This document shows, piece by piece, positions 10,104-28,700 of a DNA stretch of 32,000 bases (positions are counted from its first letter, which is position 1; every line of letters begins with the position of its first letter). The notes beneath the pieces were generated by a model, which had not been told where the DNA came from, did not search any database, and worked only from the letters and a program-made list of their open reading frames with translations. The stretch covers positions 1,650,001 to 1,682,000 of the forward strand of contig NZ_CP042905.2 of the NCBI RefSeq assembly GCF_008000775.2, written 5' to 3'. Position numbers and translations under genes: made by a program. This stretch comes from Promethearchaeum syntrophicum (lineage in GTDB: Archaea > Asgardarchaeota > Lokiarchaeia > Sigyniarchaeales > Promethearchaeaceae).

Positions 10104-10242
10104 AAAAACTCCTTGAAAAATAATCTATTCTTATTATAATTTGCATTTATTTAAAATAAAAAGGATTAATGGAATAATAGGACATTTGTATATTGAAATA
10201 ACAAAATTGAAAAGTCAAAATGTTTTCTCTGAATTTGATATT

Positions 10243-11634
10243 ATGAGATTAGATAAAGACGCTATGATTGAAAAAATGCAAGAAATTATTAATAAAGTGC
10301 CACCAAAATATTATGCAGATATACTATACGACAAAATCTCATCAATTAATATTCAACAATCTATTTCGGGCGAAAATTTATCTGTAATTCCAAGAATTGA
10401 TGGATTTGTGTTTAGAATTTTTGATGGATCCATATTTCATGAAATTTCTGACTCTAATCTCTTCAATTTAGAAGAGAGAGTATTAAAATTACAATCAAAT
10501 ATTGAATATAATCCAATAATCGAATTTATTTCCTATCCTAAACATTCAATAGATAAAGAATTCTCAATGAAAAATGATTTTACATTAATTTCCTTGGAAG
10601 AGAAACATAAAAAAATCATGGATTTGCATTTATCAATTAGAAAAATAGATCAACATGTAATCAATCCAGTTATTACGTATAAAGATTCTATGCTAGAACG
10701 AATTTTTATAAATAATGAAGGGAGTTTATTACGCCAGAAAATTCCCCGCACTTATTTGGAAATTAAACCAATTGTATCCATAGATAATAAAACTGATTAT
10801 GATACTTGTTCAGTTGGTTCTGAAGGCGGGTTCGAAATATTTGAGCAAATAAATAATGAACTCCTTGAGAAATTAGTTAAATCGTCTATAGAATTAACAA
10901 CAGCACCACACCCTCCCAGTGGAAAAATACCTGTAATTTTGGATCCTACTATTGCTGGAAATATTGCTCATGCTGTGTTCGGTCATAGTTTGCAAGGAGA
11001 TCAAATCCTACGTGGAAGAAGTATTTGGGAAAAATTTTATCTAAAACAAGTGGCATCTGAAATTGTAAATATAAGTGATAGTCCAATAGAAGAAGGGGCG
11101 TATGGTTCATATTTATTTGATGATGAAGGTGTGATGTGTAAGAAAACTCCTCTTATTGAAAAAGGGGTAATCACAAATTATTTACATTCGCGAGTTACTG
11201 CGAGTATACTTAAAATGGAGAATAATCTCTTTGGAAACGGTCGGAGGCAAGATTATTTGCATCCAGTTTATCCGAGGAATTCAAATACATTTGTTGAACC
11301 TGGTGATTATTCAAAAGAAGAGATGATTCATGAAATGGAATATGGTGTTTTAGTTTCACAAAGTGATTTTGGAATGGAAGATCCTATTGGGGGTGGAATT
11401 CAAACAAATTCAAGATCAGGATTTCTCATCGAAAATGGGGAAATTTCTACCAGAGTTAAGAGTATTGCCTTATCTGGCAATGCATTGGATTTATTGATGT
11501 CGATCGATGCAGTTTCAAAGGGTCCGATTTCACGAGTTAGTTTTAATAGCCGGAAAGGTCGTGAAGATATTGTTCCCGTTTCGTTTGGAGGAGTATTCGT
11601 CAGGGCTCAAAATATTTTCATAAGTCCTGGATAA
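10243..11634 (+). CDS. TldD-family (peptidase U62) protein lacking the catalytic Glu of HExxxH
   Basis: Family-typical C-terminal blocks (FDDEG, GNGRR, SNTFVEPG, FLIENGE). The motif position reads H277-A-V-F-G-H282 SLQGD, where TldD has HExxxH..E. The start is moved to the ATG at 10243 because the track's TTG at 10141 would leave only a very short divergent promoter gap. Confidence 0.8.
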   Translation: MRLDKDAMIEKMQEIINKVPPKYYADILYDKISSINIQQSISGENLSVIPRIDGFVFRIFDGSIFHEISDSNLFNLEERVLKLQSNIEYNPIIEFISYPKHSIDKEFSMKNDFTLISLEEKHKKIMDLHLSIRKIDQHVINPVITYKDSMLERIFINNEGSLLRQKIPRTYLEIKPIVSIDNKTDYDTCSVGSEGGFEIFEQINNELLEKLVKSSIELTTAPHPPSGKIPVILDPTIAGNIAHAVFGHSLQGDQILRGRSIWEKFYLKQVASEIVNISDSPIEEGAYGSYLFDDEGVMCKKTPLIEKGVITNYLHSRVTASILKMENNLFGNGRRQDYLHPVYPRNSNTFVEPGDYSKEEMIHEMEYGVLVSQSDFGMEDPIGGGIQTNSRSGFLIENGEISTRVKSIALSGNALDLLMSIDAVSKGPISRVSFNSRKGREDIVPVSFGGVFVRAQNIFISPG

Positions 11635-11657
11635 AATAATGGATAAAGGTGCAAAAA

Positions 11658-13052
11658 ATGAGTGAAAAGCTAAAAAACCGAAAAAATTCAATAGAAAGCC
11701 TGGCAGATCTTGTAAAATCTCAAGTATCAAAATCGGGAATTGAGAAATGGGATATTTATATACATAATGGGCAAATTAATTCATTATATTTACGAAAATC
11801 AAAAAGAGATATTAAAGTAGAAACAGAACTTAAAGATTCCAGACATTATTTTTCATATGTTCTCCGATTATTCCAAGATAAACCAGATAATAAAATGGCT
11901 TGTGGGATTGTCTCGCTGAATAGCATTTCCATCAATGAAATTCAAAAAGCAATTAAGAAAGCAAAATCAATTTTAAAAATAAATACTGGTCCAAAATATG
12001 AATTAGTTTCACCTGGTATGAAATATCCCTCACTAAAAACCATTGATAAAGATGTATGGGAAGATCCTGAAGGATTTTTGGTAAAAAAAGGTAAAGAACT
12101 CAAGCAACAGTTAAGAGAAATAATCCCCGCTTCAACTACATTTGGTAAATTTAGAGTGTATAGAAAAGAAAAAATGCTTCTAAATTATCTGGATTTTTCA
12201 AAGATAAAAAAAAGTACTAATTTCTATTATGAATTTTCATTCAAAAGCGTTGATGAAAAAGGAAGAATGGCTGAATATTGGCCCGCAGGATGGTTTAAAA
12301 CCGTAGATCAACTAAAATTTGACGAATTAATCCCAGAATGGGCTACGCTCGCAAAAGATGCTTTAAGAGCTAAAAAACCCTCATCCAATAAATCTATAGA
12401 TATCATTTTACCTCCTCGCTTAGTTAGAATTGCATTCCTTGAAACCATTGGATATTCAGCAACCGGACGTGCATTATATGAAAAAACTTCTCATTTAAAA
12501 GAAGGAGATCAAATTGCAGTAGATGATCTCACTGTTATTGATGATGGATTAAAAGAAGATCTATTATATTCAAGTGAATGGGATTCAGAGGGTAATCCAA
12601 AGCAATCAACGACAATTATTGAGAATGGAATCATGAAGAATTTTATTTTTGATCAAAAATTCGCTCAACTTATTGGTAGAACCTCAACTGGCAATGCTCA
12701 ACGTAACCCATCACGGGGGGGAAATATTAATATTGAGTTAAATAATCTAATTGTAAACCCTGGTTCTATATCACTTAAAGAGCTTGTTGGAAACTCAAAA
12801 AATGCAATGTATGTAAACAAATTTTCATGGTTACACCCAAATCCGATAACGGGAGAATTCGGTGCAACTATCGATAATGCGTATTTAATCGAGAATGGAA
12901 AATTAACACAACCAATAAAAGGTGGAATAATATCAGGGAATGTTTATGATATGATTCAAAATATTGCTGGTATTTCAAAAGAAACGAGAATCGTAATGAA
13001 TTCAAAAGTTCCTTTTATTAAATTTAGAAATATGCATTTAATTGCCAATTAA
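11658..13052 (+). CDS. PmbA/TldE-family (peptidase U62) protein
   Basis: About 464 aa from the ATG at 11658 (the track start is GTG at 11649). Family blocks WDSEGNP, TGNAQR, GEFGATIDNAYLIENGK. The motif position reads FLETIGY, with no His. It directly follows the TldD-like gene. Confidence 0.75.
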   Translation: MSEKLKNRKNSIESLADLVKSQVSKSGIEKWDIYIHNGQINSLYLRKSKRDIKVETELKDSRHYFSYVLRLFQDKPDNKMACGIVSLNSISINEIQKAIKKAKSILKINTGPKYELVSPGMKYPSLKTIDKDVWEDPEGFLVKKGKELKQQLREIIPASTTFGKFRVYRKEKMLLNYLDFSKIKKSTNFYYEFSFKSVDEKGRMAEYWPAGWFKTVDQLKFDELIPEWATLAKDALRAKKPSSNKSIDIILPPRLVRIAFLETIGYSATGRALYEKTSHLKEGDQIAVDDLTVIDDGLKEDLLYSSEWDSEGNPKQSTTIIENGIMKNFIFDQKFAQLIGRTSTGNAQRNPSRGGNINIELNNLIVNPGSISLKELVGNSKNAMYVNKFSWLHPNPITGEFGATIDNAYLIENGKLTQPIKGGIISGNVYDMIQNIAGISKETRIVMNSKVPFIKFRNMHLIAN

Positions 13053-13119: not shown

Positions 13120-14040
13120 TTAGAAATAAATCATCAATTTTTCCACCGCATCAAGTAATCCTTCTATATCTCCTTTTACCGTTTCAATGTTTGAAGAATT
13201 TTGGATATCAAACCCATAAGTGAAATAAAATCGTTTTTTATTTGAGCTAAATTGTTTCATTTCTACCACTGTAAAATCCGTTTGAAATGAAATTTCTTTC
13301 AAAGTCATGGTTTTTTTAGTAAAGGTTTGAAAAAGGCTATGGGCAACATCGCGTAATTTAATTTGCTCAATTGCAGGTTTAAAATAACTGGCTACTTCTA
13401 TTAAATCTTCAGAGAAGATAATAATAAAATCTAGCATTTGCGTAATTTGATTCTTATTGCAGAAATCATCGAAAAGAATTCCTAAATTATCATACAATGT
13501 AGAATTCCCTAACAAGGGTTTGCTAAATGCATGAATTATGGATAAAGGGTTAAAGATCGTAGTGTGATATAATGCTAATTTCAATGGTGCTGCGATTTCA
13601 ATAAATTTTTGTTTTAAAACCTCAAGCATTTTCATATTTTCCGGATCTTGCTCCATTCCAGGGTCAAATTTGTGGATTAAGATGTGAATTTTCGCATCAG
13701 GGCTGAAATCAGCAATTTTATCCCTAAAATCCTTAAAATAATTTATAGATTTTTCAAATGAACCTTGATCTTGAATATCAATTACGAATAAGGTTTGATC
13801 CACATCAGAGAATACTACTTCTGCTTTTCTGTCTAAGTATTGTTCTCGATATCTTTCTTGCCCTCCTAGATCCCAAATTGATATATCTTTTCCCAATAAT
13901 TTTAGCTTTTGTCTTTCAATACCTTTAGTTGGTTTTAATTTAGTAATTGCGCTAAATTCTTTTTGGAGACTTCGTATTAAACTTGTTTTTCCTGCATTTT
14001 GTATTCCAAATATTGGAATCTTCATTAATTCTTTTGACAT
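13120..14040 (-). CDS. Small GTPase with C-terminal ~130-aa extension (Rag/Gtr-like architecture), paralog B
   Basis: 306 aa. G1 GIQNAGKTS, G2 region PTKGIE, G3 WDLGGQ, G4 HKFD (the HKxD form is characteristic of Rag/Gtr GTPases), G5-like TTIFN. The C-terminal domain is the size of a roadblock/longin domain. The SD-like AGAGGT (14047..14052, - strand) overlaps the stop codon of the upstream paralog. Confidence 0.85.
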   Translation of the reverse strand: MSKELMKIPIFGIQNAGKTSLIRSLQKEFSAITKLKPTKGIERQKLKLLGKDISIWDLGGQERYREQYLDRKAEVVFSDVDQTLFVIDIQDQGSFEKSINYFKDFRDKIADFSPDAKIHILIHKFDPGMEQDPENMKMLEVLKQKFIEIAAPLKLALYHTTIFNPLSIIHAFSKPLLGNSTLYDNLGILFDDFCNKNQITQMLDFIIIFSEDLIEVASYFKPAIEQIKLRDVAHSLFQTFTKKTMTLKEISFQTDFTVVEMKQFSSNKKRFYFTYGFDIQNSSNIETVKGDIEGLLDAVEKLMIYF

Positions 14041-14051
14041 GTAAAAACCTC

Positions 14052-14948
14052 TTAGAAATATTTCATTATTGTTTTAACTTCTTGTAAAACATTGAAGGCT
14101 TCTGCACTTAATGGCGCCGGATCCTGGACAGCTTCAATATCATATCCATATGTGAAATAATATGGATCGCCACCCGCTTCAAATTGAATCATTCTAACTG
14201 AAATTGCGTCAGTATGTAAAGAAATATCAGATAATTCTAGTTTCTTATCATCAAATACATTAAATATTTCAAATGCCACATCACGCATTTGCTGTTGATT
14301 CACGCTTGGATCGAAATAATTTCCAATTTCCATCAAATTCTTTGAAAAAATAATAATAAATTTAGCTTCGGTCCGATTGACAAATTCGTAAAATGCAAAT
14401 TGAAAGTTGTCGTAAAGAGTAGTATTTCCAAACACTGGTTTACTAAAAGCTTGAATGACAGAGATTGGATTGAAAATTGAAGTCTTGGTTACTCTGGCAG
14501 AAAAAGGTTCTGCTAGTTCAGAAAATTTCTTGTTTATTGTTTCATAAAGTTTCATGTTATCTTCCATTTCTTCAAAACCAGGATCGAATTTATTAATTAA
14601 GATATTCATTGATGCCTTTGGTGAATATTCTGCAAGATCTTCTTTAATCTCCTGAAAATAGGTAATAGCTTCAGAGAAAGAATCTTGATCTTGAAAATCT
14701 ATTACATAAAATAATTCTTCTATACCAACAAAATAGTTTTTTGCTTTTTTCTTGTAAGTTTCACGGTATTTTGATTGCCCTCCAAAATCCCAAACTACAA
14801 TTTTTTTTGAAAAACACTCCAAGCTAGTGCGTTCAATTCCTTTCGTCGGTTTTAAATCTGCGAGAGATTTAAATTCTCGTTTAAGTGTGCGTAGTAATGA
14901 TGTTTTTCCGCCGTTAGCGATTCCTAGTATTACAATTTTTTCCGCCAT
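14052..14948 (-). CDS. Small GTPase with C-terminal ~130-aa extension (Rag/Gtr-like architecture), paralog A
   Basis: 298 aa. G1 GIANGGKTS, G3 WDFGGQ, G4 NKFD, G5-like KTSIFN. It aligns along its full length with the downstream paralog, including the C-terminal domain (both end ..FTYG[YF]DI...M[KI]YF). SD-like AGAGGT at 14955..14960 (- strand). Confidence 0.85.
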   Translation of the reverse strand: MAEKIVILGIANGGKTSLLRTLKREFKSLADLKPTKGIERTSLECFSKKIVVWDFGGQSKYRETYKKKAKNYFVGIEELFYVIDFQDQDSFSEAITYFQEIKEDLAEYSPKASMNILINKFDPGFEEMEDNMKLYETINKKFSELAEPFSARVTKTSIFNPISVIQAFSKPVFGNTTLYDNFQFAFYEFVNRTEAKFIIIFSKNLMEIGNYFDPSVNQQQMRDVAFEIFNVFDDKKLELSDISLHTDAISVRMIQFEAGGDPYYFTYGYDIEAVQDPAPLSAEAFNVLQEVKTIMKYF

Positions 14949-15257: not shown

Positions 15258-15677
15258 TTAATTTATTTCCAAATAATTTTTTAGTAAATTTTTCCACTCT
15301 TCTAACGTTCCATTTATCTTTTTCAATAGTTCTTCATTAGAAATCGATGAGTAAATATATAAGTATCCCTTATTCGTTTTAATTTGGTTATCAATATCAT
15401 GTTCCTGGCAGCGGATATTAAACTCCGTCAAAGATACTGATTCACGTATTACTAATCCTTTTTCAAGAAGAACTTTCAAATGTTTTTGTATAATACTTCT
15501 TTCAGAATTCGTGTTCTCGACTAAATTTTTAATACAGGAACCTGTTTTCTTTTTTAAGCGTAACGCTAAAAAGCAATCTACTTGTTTATTTGTGAGTTCA
15601 AATATAGCTTTAAGAGTATTAAAGACAAGGGGATTCTCTTCCAGTTCTAATAAAGATGGATTTATTGACACATTCAT
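15258..15677 (-). CDS. Winged-helix transcriptional regulator (MarR/TrmB/ArsR-like)
   Basis: 139 aa. NKQVDCFLALRLKKKTGSCIKNLVENTNSERSIIQKHLKVLLEKGLVIRE has the helix-turn-helix plus wing pattern. Confidence 0.55.
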   Translation of the reverse strand: MNVSINPSLLELEENPLVFNTLKAIFELTNKQVDCFLALRLKKKTGSCIKNLVENTNSERSIIQKHLKVLLEKGLVIRESVSLTEFNIRCQEHDIDNQIKTNKGYLYIYSSISNEELLKKINGTLEEWKNLLKNYLEIN

Positions 15678-15734: not shown

Positions 15735-16163
15735 TTATTCGATTTTTTTTAAGACTGATTCTATTATTTGTGCGAATTGCGCTTTTGGAGCCATACCAAC
15801 TTGACGGTGCACTAATTTTTTACCTTTAATAAACAGAGTTGTTGGAATTCCTGATACTTGGAATTGTTGTGCAATTGGTTGGTGGTTATCTACATTAAGC
15901 TTTGAGAAAATGACATTTTTTCCTGCTTTTAGGTATTCTTTTTGAAGTGCTTCAAAATGTGGTCCGAAAGCTTTACACGGTCCGCACCATTGTGCCCAAA
16001 AATCTACGATAATAAGGCTATCTCCGTGGTCATTGACTAATTTATTAAAATGATCAACAGATTCAATGTTAATAACATCTTCTGGAAGTGGAACAATATT
16101 TTTGTTTATCATATCAGCCATCTTTTTTTGGCGGATTGCATCAATTTCGTTATCGTTTGACAT
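15735..16163 (-). CDS. trxA: Thioredoxin
   Basis: 142 aa. Canonical active site WAQWCGPCK and the downstream GIPT cis-Pro loop. It has an N-terminal extension of about 35 aa. Confidence 0.9.
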   Translation of the reverse strand: MSNDNEIDAIRQKKMADMINKNIVPLPEDVINIESVDHFNKLVNDHGDSLIIVDFWAQWCGPCKAFGPHFEALQKEYLKAGKNVIFSKLNVDNHQPIAQQFQVSGIPTTLFIKGKKLVHRQVGMAPKAQFAQIIESVLKKIE

Positions 16164-16208: not shown

Positions 16209-16272
16209 AAGGTTGTGCAAATTTTTTTCCTCTACATATTCTAAATTTTCGCTACTATTTAAAGGTTGTGCA
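16209..16272. repeat. Two copies of an 11-nt direct repeat AAGGTTGTGCA in the divergent thioredoxin/selenoprotein-candidate intergenic region
   Basis: Exact copies at 16209..16219 and 16262..16272, each followed by a T-run. The first copy is embedded in the palindrome TTTGCA-AGGTTG-TGCAAA (16204..16221). Confidence 0.5.
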
Positions 16273-16324
16273 TTTTTTATTACCAAATAAGAAATTTTTT
16301 TTCCTTTCATTAATTAATTAATCT

Positions 16325-16627
16325 ATGAAATTTACAAGCGAAGCATGTAAGTTTATTAAACAAGAATCTTCAACCTTCAAATATGATCCTGTAGTTATGG
16401 TATTTGAACGGGTCTTCCAGGGCTGATGTGGCCAATCCAAGGCGGTAACCGCTTCATTAGTTGACAAAAAAATGCTGGCAAACGATACAGAATTTATTAT
16501 TAAAAATGGCTCAAAATGTCTTGTGCCAATATGGATTGAAAAGAATCTCCAGTATTTAGTTGATAACACTAAAATTGATGTCGCAGGTTGGTCTACCTAT
16601 CGCAGATTAATTGTGATTCCGAATTAA
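16325..16627 (+). CDS. Candidate selenoprotein: small HesB/IscA-like protein with in-frame UGA (Sec34, motif Q-G-U-C-G)
   Basis: A single frame from the ATG at 16325 to the TAA at 16625..16627 is interrupted only by TGA at 16424..16426. Translation: MKFTSEACKFIKQESSTFKYDPVVMVFERVFQG-U-CGQSKAVTASLVDKKMLANDTEFIIKNGSKCLVPIWIEKNLQYLVDNTKIDVAGWSTYRRLIVIPN. By eye, both halves align with A-type carrier/HesB proteins: the N-terminal 'i.iT..A...i' lead-in, GUCG against GCSG, and NLQYLVDNTKIDV against sLqyLdGt.iDy. A SECIS-like hairpin follows. TGA is an ordinary stop elsewhere in the window (25285..25287, 28698..28700). Confidence 0.6.
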
Positions 16628-16698
16628 TTCCCATGAGATGAAGCAAATTTACAAACTGAAGAAATTTGCAGATCCCAAAGCCATTGGAGGGGAATTAA
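16624..16698 (+). promoter_or_regulatory. Candidate SECIS element (3'-UTR stem-loop) of the UGA-containing gene
   Basis: Perfect 8-bp inner stem GCAAATTT (16643..16650) / AAATTTGC (16662..16669) with the 11-nt A-rich loop ACAAACTGAAG. The 5' flank is ATGAA (16638..16642) and the 3' flank is AGATC (16670..16674). An outer 9-bp stem TTAATTCCC (16624..16632) / GGGAATTAA (16690..16698) encloses it. The inner hairpin begins 16 nt after the stop codon. Confidence 0.45.
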
Positions 16699-20763: not shown

Positions 20764-23418
20764 ATGCTGAAAAATATCAATGGAGATTTAGCGGAATTAT
20801 TAAATTTTAAGGAAGAATATACATTCTTAGCTGGAGCGGGAGTTTCTATGGATTCTCCTTCAAATTTACCTTCAGCATTTGACATTTTAAAAAATTTAAT
20901 TTCAATTTATGGACCAGAAGAGGAATATAATAACCTAATTTCAATAAAAGATCTAAAATTCGAATCAATAATTGATCATATTAATCGTAGTTATGATGAA
21001 AATGTTGTATTTTTAGATTATTTTAATTTACAACATCACCCTAATTTTAATCATTTTTTTTTAGCTCGAGCAATTTTAAAGAATCACTATGTAATAACGA
21101 CCAATTTTGATTATATGATTGAATATGCTTTGTTAAATCTTCTTGAAGATAATAAAATCAGAAAAGAAATGATTAAAGTCATCATCACTCCATCAGATTA
21201 CAAAAATCTAAAATTACTAGAAAGTAATTTGAAAAACGAAAATTATTTTTTACTCAAAATTCATGGATCAAAACAAGATATTATTGGAAATAGAATTACT
21301 AAAGGGAGTCTAAAAGTTACAGAATCTCAGTTAGGAAAAGGATTGGAAAAAAAAGAGACTTTTGGTATTGAAAGTTTCAAAAAAGAAGTAATAAATAATA
21401 TGTTTGAAGGGAGAATACTTTTTATATTAGGATATTCTGCTAGCGATGATTTTGATATATCGCCTGTTCTTCAAGAAGCAAATAATCTCAAAGCTTTAAT
21501 TTGGATTGAACACTCTAGGGAGAACAAAATTGAAATCTTAAAAATTGTAGGTGAGCAGTATTTTAATGAGTTAAAGGTTAATTCAAATTCTTTAACACTT
21601 CTTCAAAATATGAGCAAAACACATAAATTTCCCATATATTATATTAAAACAAATACTGCTGATTTTTTATTCCAATATTTATCCAAAGATGTTCTTAACA
21701 CGTTCCCAGAGTATCTCAATGAGCACATCATACCATTTTCTAAAGAAATTCCAGAATATAATAATTGGTTACAGAATAATATAAATTTTAAAAATGTAAC
21801 AGATCACGAAAAATGGCTATTTGCATGGAAATTTTATTATATGAGCGGAGATCTCGAAAATCAGCAGCGATGTTTAAACAAAGCATACAATTTTGTCATT
21901 GAAACCACCGATGAAGAAAAAAAATCGACTATCTTAAACAATTTAGGGTATATTTACTATAAAAAAGGCAATTTTAATAAAGCCGTAGAATATTTCAAAA
22001 ATTCTATTAAAATAGATGAGAATTTGAATAAATTTGGAAAAACTGCAGCAGCTTATATTAATCTCGGAAACATATATTTAAAAAAACATCAATATAAAGA
22101 ATCGATTTTTAATTATAAAAAAATTATTGAATATTCAGCAAAAAGCAAAATCTCCTCAGAATATTTGTCTACAGCTTATAATAATATAGGATCTGCCTAC
22201 GACGCCCTAAATGAAAAAAAAAAGGCATCTGAATATTATGAAAAAGCCCTTAGTATTGATGAAAAACATGGAAATATTAGCAGTAAAGCAGCAATATTGA
22301 ATAATATTGGAGAATCCTATAGAGAAAAAGGAGATTTCCAAACTGCATTAAAATATTTTAATGATTCATTAAAGATCAGAGAATCTATGGGAACACAACA
22401 TGAAATGGCAACAGTTTTAAATAATATTGCTTATATTAAATCCTCTCTAGGAGAATATAAAGAAGCATTAGAGTTTTATACTAAAGCTCTAAGAATTGAT
22501 GAGAAATACAATGATATTGAAGGTAAATTATTGCGATTAAATAATATCGGAAGAACTTATATTAAAATGAAGGATTTTAATAAAGCAAATGATCATTTAT
22601 TAAAATCTTTAGCTTATTCTGAACAAATTAATAGAAAGGATTGGGTTTATAGTTATTATTTATCTTTAGGGGTGTCGTTTCAAGAAAAATGGCTTCAAAA
22701 TAAATTAGATCAACAATCTATCACAAAAGCTATTGAGTACAAGAAAAAAAGTTTAGAAATTGCTCGAATGATCAATGATATGAATGATATTGCTTTAAGT
22801 CTATCAGAATTAGGGAAAATTTATGAACTGTCGCATACTTATGAAGAAGCTTTATTAAATTATAAAGAATCGATTGAAATCTTTGAAAAACTTAATTCTA
22901 ATTATGATATTGCGATAGTCTCTAATCAGATGGGACAAATTTATTTAGCCCAAAACAACATTGATATGGCCATTCCTAAAATTCAAAGAGCCCTGAAATT
23001 GGATGAGAATCAAAGAAATCATATGTATTATTGTGATAATTTAGGGACTTGCTATTATAAAAAAAAAGATTTTAATAAATCCATAGAATATCATTCTAAG
23101 GCAGTTGAATTAACGAAACTGTATCACGATACTTACAAAGAAGCAGAATATTTATTGAATTTATCTAAAGCATATGGACATCTAAAAAATATAAACAAGG
23201 CAATAGAACTTATTAATCAAGCTAAATATTTAGATAAAAGCGATTTAATTCAAGCAAGAAGTAATCAATGGCTAGGAGCATATCTTAAAAATTTCAAAAA
23301 AGATTTTATTAATGCAAAAAAATACTATACCACTGCTTTGAACATATATACAAAATTGGATACCAAAGAATATGAAGATTTAATAAATTGGATAAAAAAG
23401 GAACTTAGTCAAATGTAA
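20764..23418 (+). CDS. SIR2-like (SIR2_2/ThsA-type NADase fold) N-terminal domain fused to a long TPR array
   Basis: 884 aa. The N-terminal ~250 aa carry FLAGAGVSMDSPSNLPSAF, TTNFDYMIE (Asn114), LKIHGS (His167) and LGYSASDDFDI, the pattern of SIR2-like domain proteins found in prokaryotic conflict systems. The C-terminal ~500 aa are repeated TPR units (LNNLGYIYYKKGNFNKAVEYFKNSIKIDE etc.). There is no P-loop. Confidence 0.8.
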   Translation: MLKNINGDLAELLNFKEEYTFLAGAGVSMDSPSNLPSAFDILKNLISIYGPEEEYNNLISIKDLKFESIIDHINRSYDENVVFLDYFNLQHHPNFNHFFLARAILKNHYVITTNFDYMIEYALLNLLEDNKIRKEMIKVIITPSDYKNLKLLESNLKNENYFLLKIHGSKQDIIGNRITKGSLKVTESQLGKGLEKKETFGIESFKKEVINNMFEGRILFILGYSASDDFDISPVLQEANNLKALIWIEHSRENKIEILKIVGEQYFNELKVNSNSLTLLQNMSKTHKFPIYYIKTNTADFLFQYLSKDVLNTFPEYLNEHIIPFSKEIPEYNNWLQNNINFKNVTDHEKWLFAWKFYYMSGDLENQQRCLNKAYNFVIETTDEEKKSTILNNLGYIYYKKGNFNKAVEYFKNSIKIDENLNKFGKTAAAYINLGNIYLKKHQYKESIFNYKKIIEYSAKSKISSEYLSTAYNNIGSAYDALNEKKKASEYYEKALSIDEKHGNISSKAAILNNIGESYREKGDFQTALKYFNDSLKIRESMGTQHEMATVLNNIAYIKSSLGEYKEALEFYTKALRIDEKYNDIEGKLLRLNNIGRTYIKMKDFNKANDHLLKSLAYSEQINRKDWVYSYYLSLGVSFQEKWLQNKLDQQSITKAIEYKKKSLEIARMINDMNDIALSLSELGKIYELSHTYEEALLNYKESIEIFEKLNSNYDIAIVSNQMGQIYLAQNNIDMAIPKIQRALKLDENQRNHMYYCDNLGTCYYKKKDFNKSIEYHSKAVELTKLYHDTYKEAEYLLNLSKAYGHLKNINKAIELINQAKYLDKSDLIQARSNQWLGAYLKNFKKDFINAKKYYTTALNIYTKLDTKEYEDLINWIKKELSQM

Positions 23419-24375: not shown

Positions 24376-25287
24376 ATGGCTAGAAAAATTTTTATTAAGA
24401 AAGAAACAGGAACCTTTTCTAGCGAAAAATTGGTTAGTTGGCTTGCAAAAACGGAAAAAAGAATATCTAATGTGCAATATGGAAAAGATTTTGAAAATTT
24501 AAAGCTTGTAATCATAAAATTACTTTCTAAAATTAAAAAAGAACCACATTTAGCTGGGTTTGAACCCCGGTTAGTTTTATTATTAAAAGATTGCAATTTA
24601 AATATTCAATTTATCAGACGTAACGATGATTGTTGGAGCTTAGTCAAAGAGGGCCGTTTTAATGAAGCTCTTGAAGAAATTATTCAGACTCTTAAAGATA
24701 TCAATTCCCATCCCGATAAAGATTTAATTCGGCCTGATATTAAGGGGATAATTGTAGATTCAGTAAAAAAAATTTCAGAACAGGTTGATTCTGAGGTAAA
24801 AATTCTACCACAACTTAATCTTCCAAAATCAAATATTAAAACCCTTAACCCTTTAAGTTCACCAAAATCTCCCTCTCAATCAATACAAACAACTGGCAAT
24901 ACTTTCAAGCCAGATATTGAAAAATTTCATCCTTTTGATATATCTGCTCCAATTGAAAATCCATTTAAATTTATAGATGATGAAAAAATACCTCAAAAGG
25001 TAAGAGATGTAAATTCTGAAACTTATTTTAAATCGAAACATTTAAACCACAAAGATAGTAAAATTGAACCTTATTTAGATCCTTTTCCGAAACCTAATCA
25101 ATCCCAGGATTTATCAAAAGATCAATTGAATTCTATTAGTGAATATTGGTTAAAAAAAGGGAAGAATAAAATAATGCAACATAAGAATTCCACTGATATT
25201 GTAACTCAAAAAATTGCTCAATCAAATCAAGATGATTTCAATTTAGAAAAGAAAAAAAAAACTAATAATCCATGGCCAGCTAAATGA
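24376..25287 (+). CDS. Hypothetical protein with low-complexity P/S/Q/K-rich C-terminal half
   Basis: 303 aa ORF with an ATG start and a TGA stop. No motif recognised. Confidence 0.4.
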   Translation: MARKIFIKKETGTFSSEKLVSWLAKTEKRISNVQYGKDFENLKLVIIKLLSKIKKEPHLAGFEPRLVLLLKDCNLNIQFIRRNDDCWSLVKEGRFNEALEEIIQTLKDINSHPDKDLIRPDIKGIIVDSVKKISEQVDSEVKILPQLNLPKSNIKTLNPLSSPKSPSQSIQTTGNTFKPDIEKFHPFDISAPIENPFKFIDDEKIPQKVRDVNSETYFKSKHLNHKDSKIEPYLDPFPKPNQSQDLSKDQLNSISEYWLKKGKNKIMQHKNSTDIVTQKIAQSNQDDFNLEKKKKTNNPWPAK

Positions 25288-27794: not shown

Positions 27795-28700
27795 ATGTCC
27801 TTGGATAAATTTACTACAAAAATCAAAGAAATAAATCGTGAGACGGCATTTATATTAGTTTTCGTTTCATATTACCTTGCAATTGTATCGGCTATTGGTC
27901 TTGGATATCTTCTTAGAGATCTAAATCCAATTTTAATGATATTTCTGGTTGATATTTTAGCCACTTTGATAATTTTTATAATTAGTACAGTTTTTAGAAA
28001 CGCTAGTTTTTATGATCCTTTTTGGAGTTTTATCCCAATTGTAATTGCTCTTTATTTATTGTTTACTTCCTCTGATTTAGTTAATACTGTTCGTCAATAT
28101 ATTGTGGTGTTGATGGTCTGTCTTTGGGGTTTACGATTAACATGGAACTGGGTTCGTCAGTGGAGAGGTATAAATCATGAAGATTGGAGATATGTGAATT
28201 TCAGGAAAAAGTATGTTAAATCTTTTTGGTTTATAAATTTAACGGGTATTCAACTTATGCCGACAATTCTTGTGTTTTTTGGATGTTTGTCTCTATTTCC
28301 AGCTTTAAATTCAGGAACAAACAATTTTCAATTTCTTGATTATATTGCTTTAATTATTACATTGGGAGCAATAATTCTAGAAACATTTGCCGATTTTCAA
28401 ATGAAAAATTTCATGAAAACCAGAAAAGATCCGCAATTGATTATGGATAAGGGATTGTGGGGTAAATCGCGGCATCCGAATTATTTAGGTGAGATGTTAT
28501 TTTGGTGGGGGTTGTATTTATTCGGTGTAAGTGCCGATCCTCAATATTGGTGGGTGATATTTGGACCAATCGCGATTACAATATTATTCCTATTTATAAG
28601 TATCCCTATGATGGAAAAACGCCAAGAACACAAATCTGAATATAAAAACTATAAATTACGAGTTCGAAAATTGATTCCAAGATTTTCTTTTTCTTCTTGA
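27795..28700 (+). CDS. DUF1295 / steroid 5-alpha-reductase-like membrane protein
   Basis: 301 aa, polytopic. GLWGKSRHPNYLGEMLFWWGLYL matches the sRHPNYfGE signature shared by the DUF1295, steroid-reductase and ICMT-like membrane enzyme families. Confidence 0.75.
   Translation: MSLDKFTTKIKEINRETAFILVFVSYYLAIVSAIGLGYLLRDLNPILMIFLVDILATLIIFIISTVFRNASFYDPFWSFIPIVIALYLLFTSSDLVNTVRQYIVVLMVCLWGLRLTWNWVRQWRGINHEDWRYVNFRKKYVKSFWFINLTGIQLMPTILVFFGCLSLFPALNSGTNNFQFLDYIALIITLGAIILETFADFQMKNFMKTRKDPQLIMDKGLWGKSRHPNYLGEMLFWWGLYLFGVSADPQYWWVIFGPIAITILFLFISIPMMEKRQEHKSEYKNYKLRVRKLIPRFSFSS

Follow-up and report, generated by a model that had tools for sequence, protein, structure and literature searches.

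The stretch analysed here, referred to below as the window, comprises 32,000 nucleotides (nt) of the genome of Promethearchaeum syntrophicum MK-D1 (assembly GCA_008000775.1, CP042905.1), and it carries on the forward strand, at 16325-16627, a frame interrupted by a single TGA, which we interpret as the gene of a small protein containing selenocysteine (Sec, U). The ATG at 16325, which has in-frame stops directly upstream, is followed by 33 sense codons, by the TGA at 16424-16426, which is the sole stop inside the frame, by 66 further sense codons and by a TAA at 16625-16627, exactly as given in the original prediction, which had described a frame of 100 codons missed by the open reading frame (ORF) track and had proposed it as a candidate selenoprotein. 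The local motif at the recoded site is Q-G-TGA-C-G. A mechanical list of ORFs holds nothing but pieces, of 33 amino acids (aa; 16325-16426) and 51 aa (16472-16627), next to an 83-aa ORF on the opposite strand (16318-16569), and public annotation of P. syntrophicum retains the last 51 codons only, as the 'hypothetical protein' DSAG12_04220, a record that is an artefact of a start at an internal ATG. The features of the gene itself are as follows.

16325-16627, forward strand: proposed selenoprotein coding sequence (CDS), 100 residues, MKFTSEACKFIKQESSTFKYDPVVMVFERVFQG-U-CGQSKAV...RRLIVIPN, with a predicted HesB/IscA-like fold
16424-16426, forward strand: proposed Sec codon TGA, residue 34, followed by Cys35 in a G-U-C-G dyad; a column of conserved TGA
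16472-16627, forward strand: 51-aa ORF starting at the internal ATG 16472, after the TGA; identical to the stored protein P0032 and to DSAG12_04220
16318-16569, reverse strand: 83-aa antisense ORF, not a gene; one to three stops in all 12 readable homologous loci

Seven full-length homologues, 100-111 aa long and 74-88 % identical, were retrieved from 5.8 billion proteins by a word-indexed search. In the stored proteins the TGA column reads W in six and C in one, and in the contig DNA each of these W residues is a TGA and the C is a TGC; the stored W stems from gene callers using code 4, and TGG stands at this column in none of the homologues. Altogether, TGA occupies the recoded column in 14 of 15 homologous loci (L001, L002, L004-L010 and L012-L016), among them the contigs L009 and L010 of Promethearchaeum metagenome-assembled genomes (MAGs) and five metagenome contigs of the Joint Genome Institute (JGI), three of which (L014-L016) are merely 33-35 % identical. 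The sole exception, L003, which encodes protein P0003, has TGC (Cys), and the distant member P0015 reads C-C-G at the dyad site. Such conservation is judged from the alignment to lie far above chance. Two of the traits by which selenoprotein genes are recognized are present here, namely a conserved in-frame UGA with coding conservation on either side and Cys homologues at the Sec column (TGC in L003/P0003, C-C-G in P0015), and homologues aligning across the TGA with Cys or Sec at its column are what the original prediction had proposed to look for.

As six of the seven database homologues show W at the column, TGA might be regarded as a sense codon in this organism or in these contigs, either for Trp as in code 4 or for Gly as in code 25. 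Against this, the 29 long ORFs of the window end in TAA (21), TAG (5) or TGA (3); the TGA-ended ones include 24376-25287 and 27795-28700, the latter with a complete DUF1295 domain, and reading through all three TGA stops leads to more stops at once. TGG is used for 101 codons in the window, while the recoded column has TGC as its alternative and never TGG, and four orthologues of the gene (L004, L007, L009 and L010) have TGA as their own stop. A sense-codon TGA has hardly any probability left, and on this evidence the codon is an ordinary stop in the window and not part of a reassigned code, as had been argued from the stops at 25285..25287 and 28698..28700, which are both among the three.

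An exhaustive HMMER search of 1.84 billion cluster representatives gave 15 matches. All full-length ones read [G/S]-[W or C]-C-G, and the others are either N-terminal segments of 33-35 aa that end exactly at the TGA column or C-terminal segments of 58-61 aa; overall, the databases hold pieces of the gene of 33-35 aa from the N-terminus and 51-63 aa from the C-terminus. We read this splitting at the TGA column as the signature of Sec genes cut by standard callers. All members known so far belong either to Promethearchaeota or to short contigs with no assignment, and this clade appears confined to Promethearchaeota. For the distant clade the only other deposit is a 63-aa 'partial hypothetical'. 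Two further candidates were discarded: P0013 of the deep search, a 1700-aa repeat protein, is a repeat-driven artefact, and L011 8643-8747, from the Planctomycetales MAG JAHEFU010000021, is a chance match or a remnant, in which 34 aa (CLIPIWIE...FRRIMV) match the C-terminal part of the family at 43 % identity and both the N-terminal half and the U/C motif are missing.

Nei-Gojobori estimates of the ratio of nonsynonymous to synonymous substitutions (dN/dS) over 11 loci are 0.21 before the TGA and 0.12 after it, at a dS of ~0.53, from which we conclude that a single protein is translated across both halves. Since the ratio is the lower of the two beyond the 'stop', purifying selection is stronger there, and the original prediction had indeed required conservation downstream of the TGA. 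These values bear on two other explanations of the locus. In a decayed gene the TGA would have arisen by nonsense mutation of what was once a Cys codon, giving fragments at most, and this would agree with the public annotation of a 51-aa fragment only and with the one relative that has TGC at the site; it has practically no chance of being correct, given a TGA that stays in one and the same column in 14 loci with protein identities of 33-88 %, a dN/dS of 0.12 downstream at dS 0.53 with no frameshifts or extra stops in the gene, and a conserved RNA element directly downstream (see below). Likewise, two small genes of 33 and 51 aa, or a real gene in the 83-aa antisense ORF, would match what a standard caller lists, yet the Cys orthologue P0003 is a single unbroken protein of 101 aa, its predicted structure is one compact domain with the TGA column in a hairpin turn, and coding conservation also covers the 45 nt from the TGA to the internal ATG. 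The antisense frame has no entry in the searched protein collection, and it is not a gene because it contains one to three stops in each of the 12 homologous loci. We consider separate genes on either strand to be of negligible likelihood, and the original prediction was right to treat the two halves as neither separate nor decayed.

The preferred reading, a single recoded gene, gains further support from the 3' untranslated region (UTR), in which lies a putative Sec insertion sequence (SECIS) that had not been noticed in the original prediction.

16624-16698, forward strand: predicted SECIS, eukaryote-like 'lokiSECIS' type I, 75 nt, beginning at the stop codon; recognized by fold, pattern match, conservation and covariation
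16624-16632, forward strand: lower helix, 5' strand UUAAUUCCC, containing the UAA stop and pairing with 16690-16698
16638-16642, forward strand: 5' side of the core, AUGA (16638-16641) plus a variable N; proposed kink-turn partner of GA 16671-16672
16643-16669, forward strand: upper helix and apical loop, GCAAAUUU (16643-16650) pairing with AAAUUUGC (16662-16669) around the 11-nt loop ACAAACUGAAG (16651-16661)
16670-16672, forward strand: 3' side of the core, a variable N and then GA (16671-16672), which is invariant in all loci
16675-16687, forward strand: small predicted hairpin, CCAA-AGCCA-UUGG, within the internal loop of the SECIS on its 3' arm
16690-16698, forward strand: lower helix, 3' strand GGGAAUUAA, p-distance 0.000 in the close family

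The minimum free energy fold of 16624-16698 has a z of -2.9, and 0 of 200 shuffles fold as well. It consists of a lower helix of 9 bp (16624-16632 with 16690-16698), an internal loop with the unpaired AUGA above it, and an upper stem, AGCAAAUUU/AAAUUUGCA, of eight Watson-Crick pairs plus a closing A.A. The lokiSECIS was described as an AUGA, a 9-bp stem, an 11-nt loop and a GA near the end of the CDS, with the first five bases of the loop mostly A and the last a G after an A (Mariotti 2016, PMC4989117), and the type I elements of Asgard archaea as a GA_[G/A]A core with a stem of 7-15 bp and a loop of 8-20 nt (Huang 2024, PMC11227280). The element in the window has all features of the former and fits the limits of the latter: AUGA stands directly 5' of the stem (16638-16641), the stem has 9 bp and the apical loop 11 nt, GA stands directly 3' of the stem (16671-16672), and the loop starts A-rich and ends in AG (ACAAA...AAG in the window, AAAAA...AAG in close relatives; AUAAA at the start and variable ends in the distant loci). 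A scan for this pattern over both strands of the 32 kb gave one match, 11 nt after the stop, the chance level in dinucleotide shuffles being 0.37 matches per window anywhere on both strands, and the pattern was also found at the same place in L014, L015 and L016. The element is located where a SECIS is expected and is of the type of the host lineage. It differs from the reported lokiSECIS in serving a family outside the seven reported Asgard selenoprotein families, in its defined lower helix of 7-9 bp with the stop codon, in the extra small hairpin of the 3' arm, and in the UUGA core of five related loci. A reading of the same region as a euryarchaeal GAA_A SECIS (GAU-GAA-...-A-GAUC) was rejected, as its third base varies among orthologues (GAA, GAC, GAU); the 3-bp upper stem of G:C pairs only that characterizes this type is absent, the stem here having 8 bp and being A/U-rich.

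Across the loci, the 75 nt from the stop codon are strongly conserved and the remaining spacer is not. The p-distance of the SECIS is 0.116, against a synonymous distance (pS) of 0.379 in the adjoining CDS, which makes it ~3x slower, and its helices, its apical loop and the GA have values of 0.00-0.08, against ~0.4 for the junction and the flank. In the core, UGA is invariant in all loci, the base before it is A or U, and the base after it is variable; AUGA is found in the window, L002, L004, L005, L007, L009, L010 and L013-L016, and UUGA in L001 (565-568), L003 (433-436), L006 (477-480), L008 (365-368) and L012. A UUGA core is described neither in Mariotti 2016 (PMC4989117) nor in Huang 2024 (PMC11227280). 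L001 and L002 encode an identical protein with a different core base (UUGA vs AUGA).

In the close family, RNAalifold recovered the upper helix only and no covariation, the sequences being too similar, and the divergent loci are the more informative. Their lower helices are AAUCUCA/UGAGAUU in L015 and CCAAUCGU/ACGAUUGG in L014, and their upper helices GUAAAUC/GAUUUAC in L016 and a wholly different GGUUUUC/GGAAACU in L014, in which the same SECIS architecture is built from entirely different helices. Compensatory changes in the upper helix (C-G to U-A and U-A to C-G) occur in L015 and L016. With a covariance model derived from the close family, L015 (E 3e-9) and L016 are recovered; in the resulting alignment two-sided changes are found in 7 of 21 pairs, a level reached by 0 of 500 shuffles, and 91 % of cells pair, against at most 63 % in slid registers. 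The small hairpin was also predicted independently in L015 (ACCCA/UGGGU) and in L014 (AAACUC/GAGUUU), and its register is weak or shifting among the close family.

Two observations concern the boundary between gene and element. In the TGC-bearing locus the P0003 gene lies at L003 117-422 and a SECIS-like element, still complete, at L003 418-497; this suggests a recent Sec-to-Cys conversion that left a 'fossil' SECIS, for which a bacterial HesB-like gene provides a precedent (PMC1794560). In L004 (1092-1127), L007 (317-352), L009 (7445-7480) and L010 (10277-10312) the TAA is lost and the frame ends at a TGA three codons on, the new stop being that of the upstream 'CCAUGA', and the CDS crosses the 5' strand of the lower helix of the SECIS.

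The host is known to use selenocysteine. The genes downstream in the window are QEE16243, a tetratricopeptide repeat (TPR) protein, and QEE16244, a phosphotransferase (kinase), of P. syntrophicum, exact matches that identify the window as strain MK-D1, and the supplementary data of Huang 2024 (PMC11227280) list for GCA_008000775 the Sec-containing proteins SelD, FrhA, FrhD, HdrA and three Prx-like proteins, so the host decodes UGA as Sec; together with Mariotti 2016 this also confirms that selenoproteins had been described for Lokiarchaeota, as the original prediction stated. The alternative that a near-cognate tRNA (for Cys, Trp or Arg) reads the UGA, and that the 3' element serves read-through stimulation, stability or termination, can draw on the predicted status of Sec insertion, on the UUGA core of some loci and on the failure of the Rfam SECIS models to match. 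It is nevertheless improbable in our judgement: the element fits the lokiSECIS description point by point, the organism has seven other Sec genes (Huang 2024), the alternation of Sec and Cys beside a second Cys is the standard signature of a selenoprotein, and the nearest curated family, NF041239, is itself a (seleno)protein family. The TGA/TGC column, the selection on both sides and the lokiSECIS all speak for the candidate selenoprotein first proposed from the bare frame.

The natural Cys orthologue P0003 was modelled with AlphaFold2. The model, with a predicted local distance difference test score (pLDDT) of 89.3 and a predicted template modelling score (pTM) of 0.80, is one compact domain in which the recoded column lies in the turn between the two strands (22-33 and 36-47) of a long beta-hairpin. 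With one exception, the nine best Foldseek matches in the PDB are IscA, SufA or HesB-family proteins (IscA 1r94, 1s98 and 1x0g, SufA 2d2a, HI1723 2apn and Aq_1857 1nwb); this group has template modelling (TM) scores of 0.5-0.66, probability 1.0 and 99-102 aligned columns, the best being 1r94 (E 3e-4, TM 0.64-0.66), and the matches below it have E > 0.5. At the sequence level, with the Sec column set to Cys, PF01521 matched four of six distant members at E 0.005-0.17 (12.5-17.4 bits), collinearly over profile positions ~3-85 of 110, and replacing W by C in that column lifted one of these scores from 14.9 to 17.4 bits; no member reached the gathering score of 26.3 bits.

The question is then whether the protein is a bona fide A-type iron-sulfur (Fe-S) carrier, an IscA/SufA/HesB orthologue with Sec as a cluster ligand. 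It has the IscA fold over its whole length (PF01521; 1r94, 1s98, 2d2a, 1x0g), its U34-C35 dyad lies in the beta2-beta3 turn that holds the first ligand Cys of IscA (C35), and there are the weak PF01521 matches. However, the protein ends at RRLIVIPN, before the C-G-C ligand region, and a C-terminal Cys is absent from it and from all other family members, in a region whose invariant columns are C99 and C101 of IscA; the PF01521 matches end at ~85 of 110 with none at the cutoff, a vicinal U-C pair replaces the single Cys of IscA, the sequence similarity is not significant, and no isc, suf or nif genes are found nearby. Without the two C-terminal cluster-ligating Cys, the role of a canonical Fe-S carrier does not follow, and we regard this assignment as unlikely. 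According to the model, we are dealing instead with a (seleno)protein of truncated HesB fold that bears a vicinal U-C dyad and is no canonical A-type carrier. The resemblance to HesB/IscA noted in the original prediction accordingly stands for the fold and for the weak PF01521 similarity and does not extend to membership in PF01521 or TIGR01911 or to the C-x-C motif, and its placement of G-U-C-G at the cluster-ligating Cys of IscA stands as far as the hairpin turn: in the hhalign register C35 falls on C35 of IscA and U34 on G34, the exact counterpart being uncertain by one residue.

Among the NCBIfam models, the window protein has one match, full-length, to NF041239 (E 1e-5, 25.4 bits; protein 2-97 to profile 4-88 of 91, collinear). 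The model is matched by 14 of 18 family members, relatives having E 1e-4 to 3e-8, and in seven distant relatives it is the single NCBIfam match (22-34 bits); its curated cutoff of 40 bits is reached neither by the window protein nor by any relative. Of the small (seleno)protein families of NCBI, against which the original prediction had proposed a search, NF041239 matches, below its cutoff, and TIGR01911 does not. NF041239, the 'CC/Se motif (seleno)protein' or 'Moor_selen_rel', is a bacterial family predicted in Moorella thermoacetica (2026 review PMC13188914, Table 1). Like the family described here, it comprises proteins of ~90-100 aa with a Cys/Sec pair motif, and it is the sole curated model that matches. 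In contrast, it is not flagged as archaeal in PMC13188914, whereas the clade here appears to be found in Promethearchaeota only, its SECIS is of the bacterial type within the CDS and not a lokiSECIS in the 3'UTR, and its motif is given in that review as CxxU, compared with U-C here. On these sequence comparisons NF041239 is a relative and the nearest curated family, of which the window protein is not a curated member. A further label, PF28096, is attached to P0015, P0018, P0021 and P0029 in precomputed annotation, and may describe this superfamily already.

The same review lists the HesB-like selenoprotein separately, as TIGR01911 with the motif UxGP (PMC13188914). That family, found in bacteria and in Methanococcus maripaludis (MMJJ_08070; 75Se-labelled), likewise consists of small selenoproteins 'distantly related to IscA' with the Sec near the N-terminal third, and it provides the archaeal precedent for a HesB-fold selenoprotein, in keeping with the statement in the original prediction that such proteins occur in methanogens. 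None of the 18 members matched TIGR01911 at E <= 10; at the site of its UxGP motif the window protein has U-C-G-Q, and the distant P0021 and P0015 have U-C-G-P and C-C-G-P, respectively. The methanogen gene uses a GAA_A-type archaeal SECIS, in contrast to the AUGA/GA lokiSECIS proposed here.

The immediate neighbourhood adds two features.

15735-16163, reverse strand: thioredoxin with WCGPC, a candidate reductant or partner (PF00085 E 2.4e-25; TIGR01068 101.1 bits, cutoff 96.8)
16210-16278, forward strand: direct repeat AGGTTGTGCAWTTTTT, two copies (16210-16225 and 16263-16278), lying in the promoter region that the divergent genes share

The divergent thioredoxin, correctly recognized in the original prediction, is also a neighbour in three further loci and is arranged in the same way in L004 and L012, and a TPR protein gene lies downstream of the selenoprotein gene. 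In the distant clade the linkage to thioredoxin of the close clade is replaced by a convergent gene right after the SECIS, which encodes a LarE-type ATP-dependent sacrificial sulfur transferase (TIGR00268, 228 bits; L014 987-1847 and L015 1234-1734, both reverse strand). The repeat AGGTTGTGCAWTTTTT has two matches against 0.01 expected, and a pair ~52 nt apart is also present upstream of the gene in L004 (691/743), L005 (1/54), L006 (37/89) and L010 (9876/9928); it probably acts as an operator or promoter element. A Lrs14/TrmB-like helix-turn-helix (HTH) protein, encoded at 15258-15677 on the reverse strand and adjoining this promoter region, is a candidate for binding it. Elsewhere in the window, two paralogous small GTPases of the Gtr1/RagA type, both with a long extension at the C-terminus and both typical 'eukaryotic signature' proteins of Asgard archaea, are encoded in tandem at 13120-14040 and 14052-14948 on the reverse strand. 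On the forward strand, adjacent genes of PmbA/TldD-family metallopeptidases occupy 10141-11634 and 11649-13052, and an 884-aa protein with an N-terminal SIR2_2 domain and many TPR repeats (20764-23418) recalls NAD-depleting defence or STAND-like proteins.

Taken together, we put at roughly 0.9 the probability that the frame is a true selenoprotein gene, with predicted Sec insertion, and that its SECIS is functional. We regard as established the conserved TGA with its Cys alternative, the purifying selection on both sides, the conservation and covariation of the SECIS, the fold, and the use of Sec by the host. Several points weigh on the other side. Sec insertion at UGA34 is a prediction, the Sec trait of MK-D1 was taken from literature supplements (Huang 2024), and the 32-kb window holds neither a tRNA-Sec nor a Sec-machinery gene (ARAGORN found no tRNA at all). 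As to the RNA element, five close loci have a UUGA core that is not the canonical A/G-UGA, four of them still with the TGA codon; the Rfam SECIS models (RF00031 and relatives) gave no match at the gathering score or at E <= 10, the weak matches to algC, STnc220, snR55 and Bacilli-1 being due to chance. The helices are almost invariant in the close family, so the covariation comes from three divergent loci, and the covariation alignment was partly fitted to the model, with the compensatory cells coming from two loci. As to the protein, Pfam gave nothing for the window protein even at E <= 10, including the Fe-S_biosyn family named in the original prediction, hhalign against IscA, alone or as a four-sequence alignment, was not significant (E 0.16-0.25), and a sequence-profile search of the PDB gave no real match, those to RNase P p38 and thioredoxin (E > 0.07) being due to chance. 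Finally, the neighbours differ between the clades (thioredoxin vs LarE), and the functional proposal that follows is drawn solely from fold, motif and gene neighbourhood.

With regard to mechanism, we propose that UGA codon 34 would be read as selenocysteine by the archaeal/eukaryotic-type Sec machinery of MK-D1, directed by the SECIS at 16624-16698 in the 3'UTR. In this element the lower helix with the stop codon would be followed by an internal loop, a core of the kink-turn type formed by AUGA and GA, an upper helix and an A-rich apical loop of 11 nt. The product would be a protein of HesB/IscA fold, truncated before the Cys-x-Cys and bearing the vicinal Sec34-Cys35 at the tip of a beta-hairpin. 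Because of the fold, the motif and the neighbours, the dyad might possibly be a redox-active or chalcogen/metal-carrying centre, recycled by thioredoxin and acting in sulfur or Fe-S trafficking, a suggestion we make tentatively. Mammalian thioredoxin reductase has a Cys-Sec pair that forms a selenenylsulfide, and the dyad could do the same; another option would be a pair of Fe-S or persulfide ligands bridging subunits. Under either option the divergently encoded thioredoxin would recycle the dyad.

Previous surveys reported five selenoprotein families in Loki (Mariotti 2016, PMC4989117) and seven in Asgard archaea (Huang 2024, PMC11227280), and neither includes this one. The search in Huang 2024 was by homology to known selenoprotein families, none of whose models reaches this family at its cutoff, and in Mariotti 2016 novel families were also sought, in the data then available. 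Sec decoding in Lokiarchaea, the lokiSECIS and HesB-fold selenoproteins had been described before, and the novelty lies in the occurrence of this family in archaea. Counting the 11 archaeal selenoprotein families of the 2026 review (PMC13188914), it would be the twelfth in archaea and the eighth in Asgard. Somewhat speculatively, and as one possibility to be held with reserve, this Asgard-restricted family may have placed a Sec-Cys dyad on a truncated HesB/IscA scaffold to give a new thioredoxin-dependent redox or sulfur/Fe-S (or selenium) carrier centre, served by an element with the full eukaryote-like SECIS layout (helix I, internal loop, k-turn core, helix II and AAA loop) and with an apparent tolerance of UUGA.

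The first Asgard archaeon brought into culture would have in its reference genome a selenoprotein gene that annotation shows as a hypothetical fragment of 51 aa. The gene would enlarge the small set of archaeal selenoproteins by one family, would extend to archaea a bacterial superfamily known as a '(seleno)protein of unknown function', and would show this superfamily to have the HesB/IscA fold. The compact and well-delimited lokiSECIS with its natural variants, among them the two core types AUGA and UUGA and the Cys form with its element retained, would be useful for the study of SECIS function in a lineage lacking SBP2. With MK-D1 available as a culture and a Sec reporter system at hand for archaea (PMC9622424), the prediction is directly testable.

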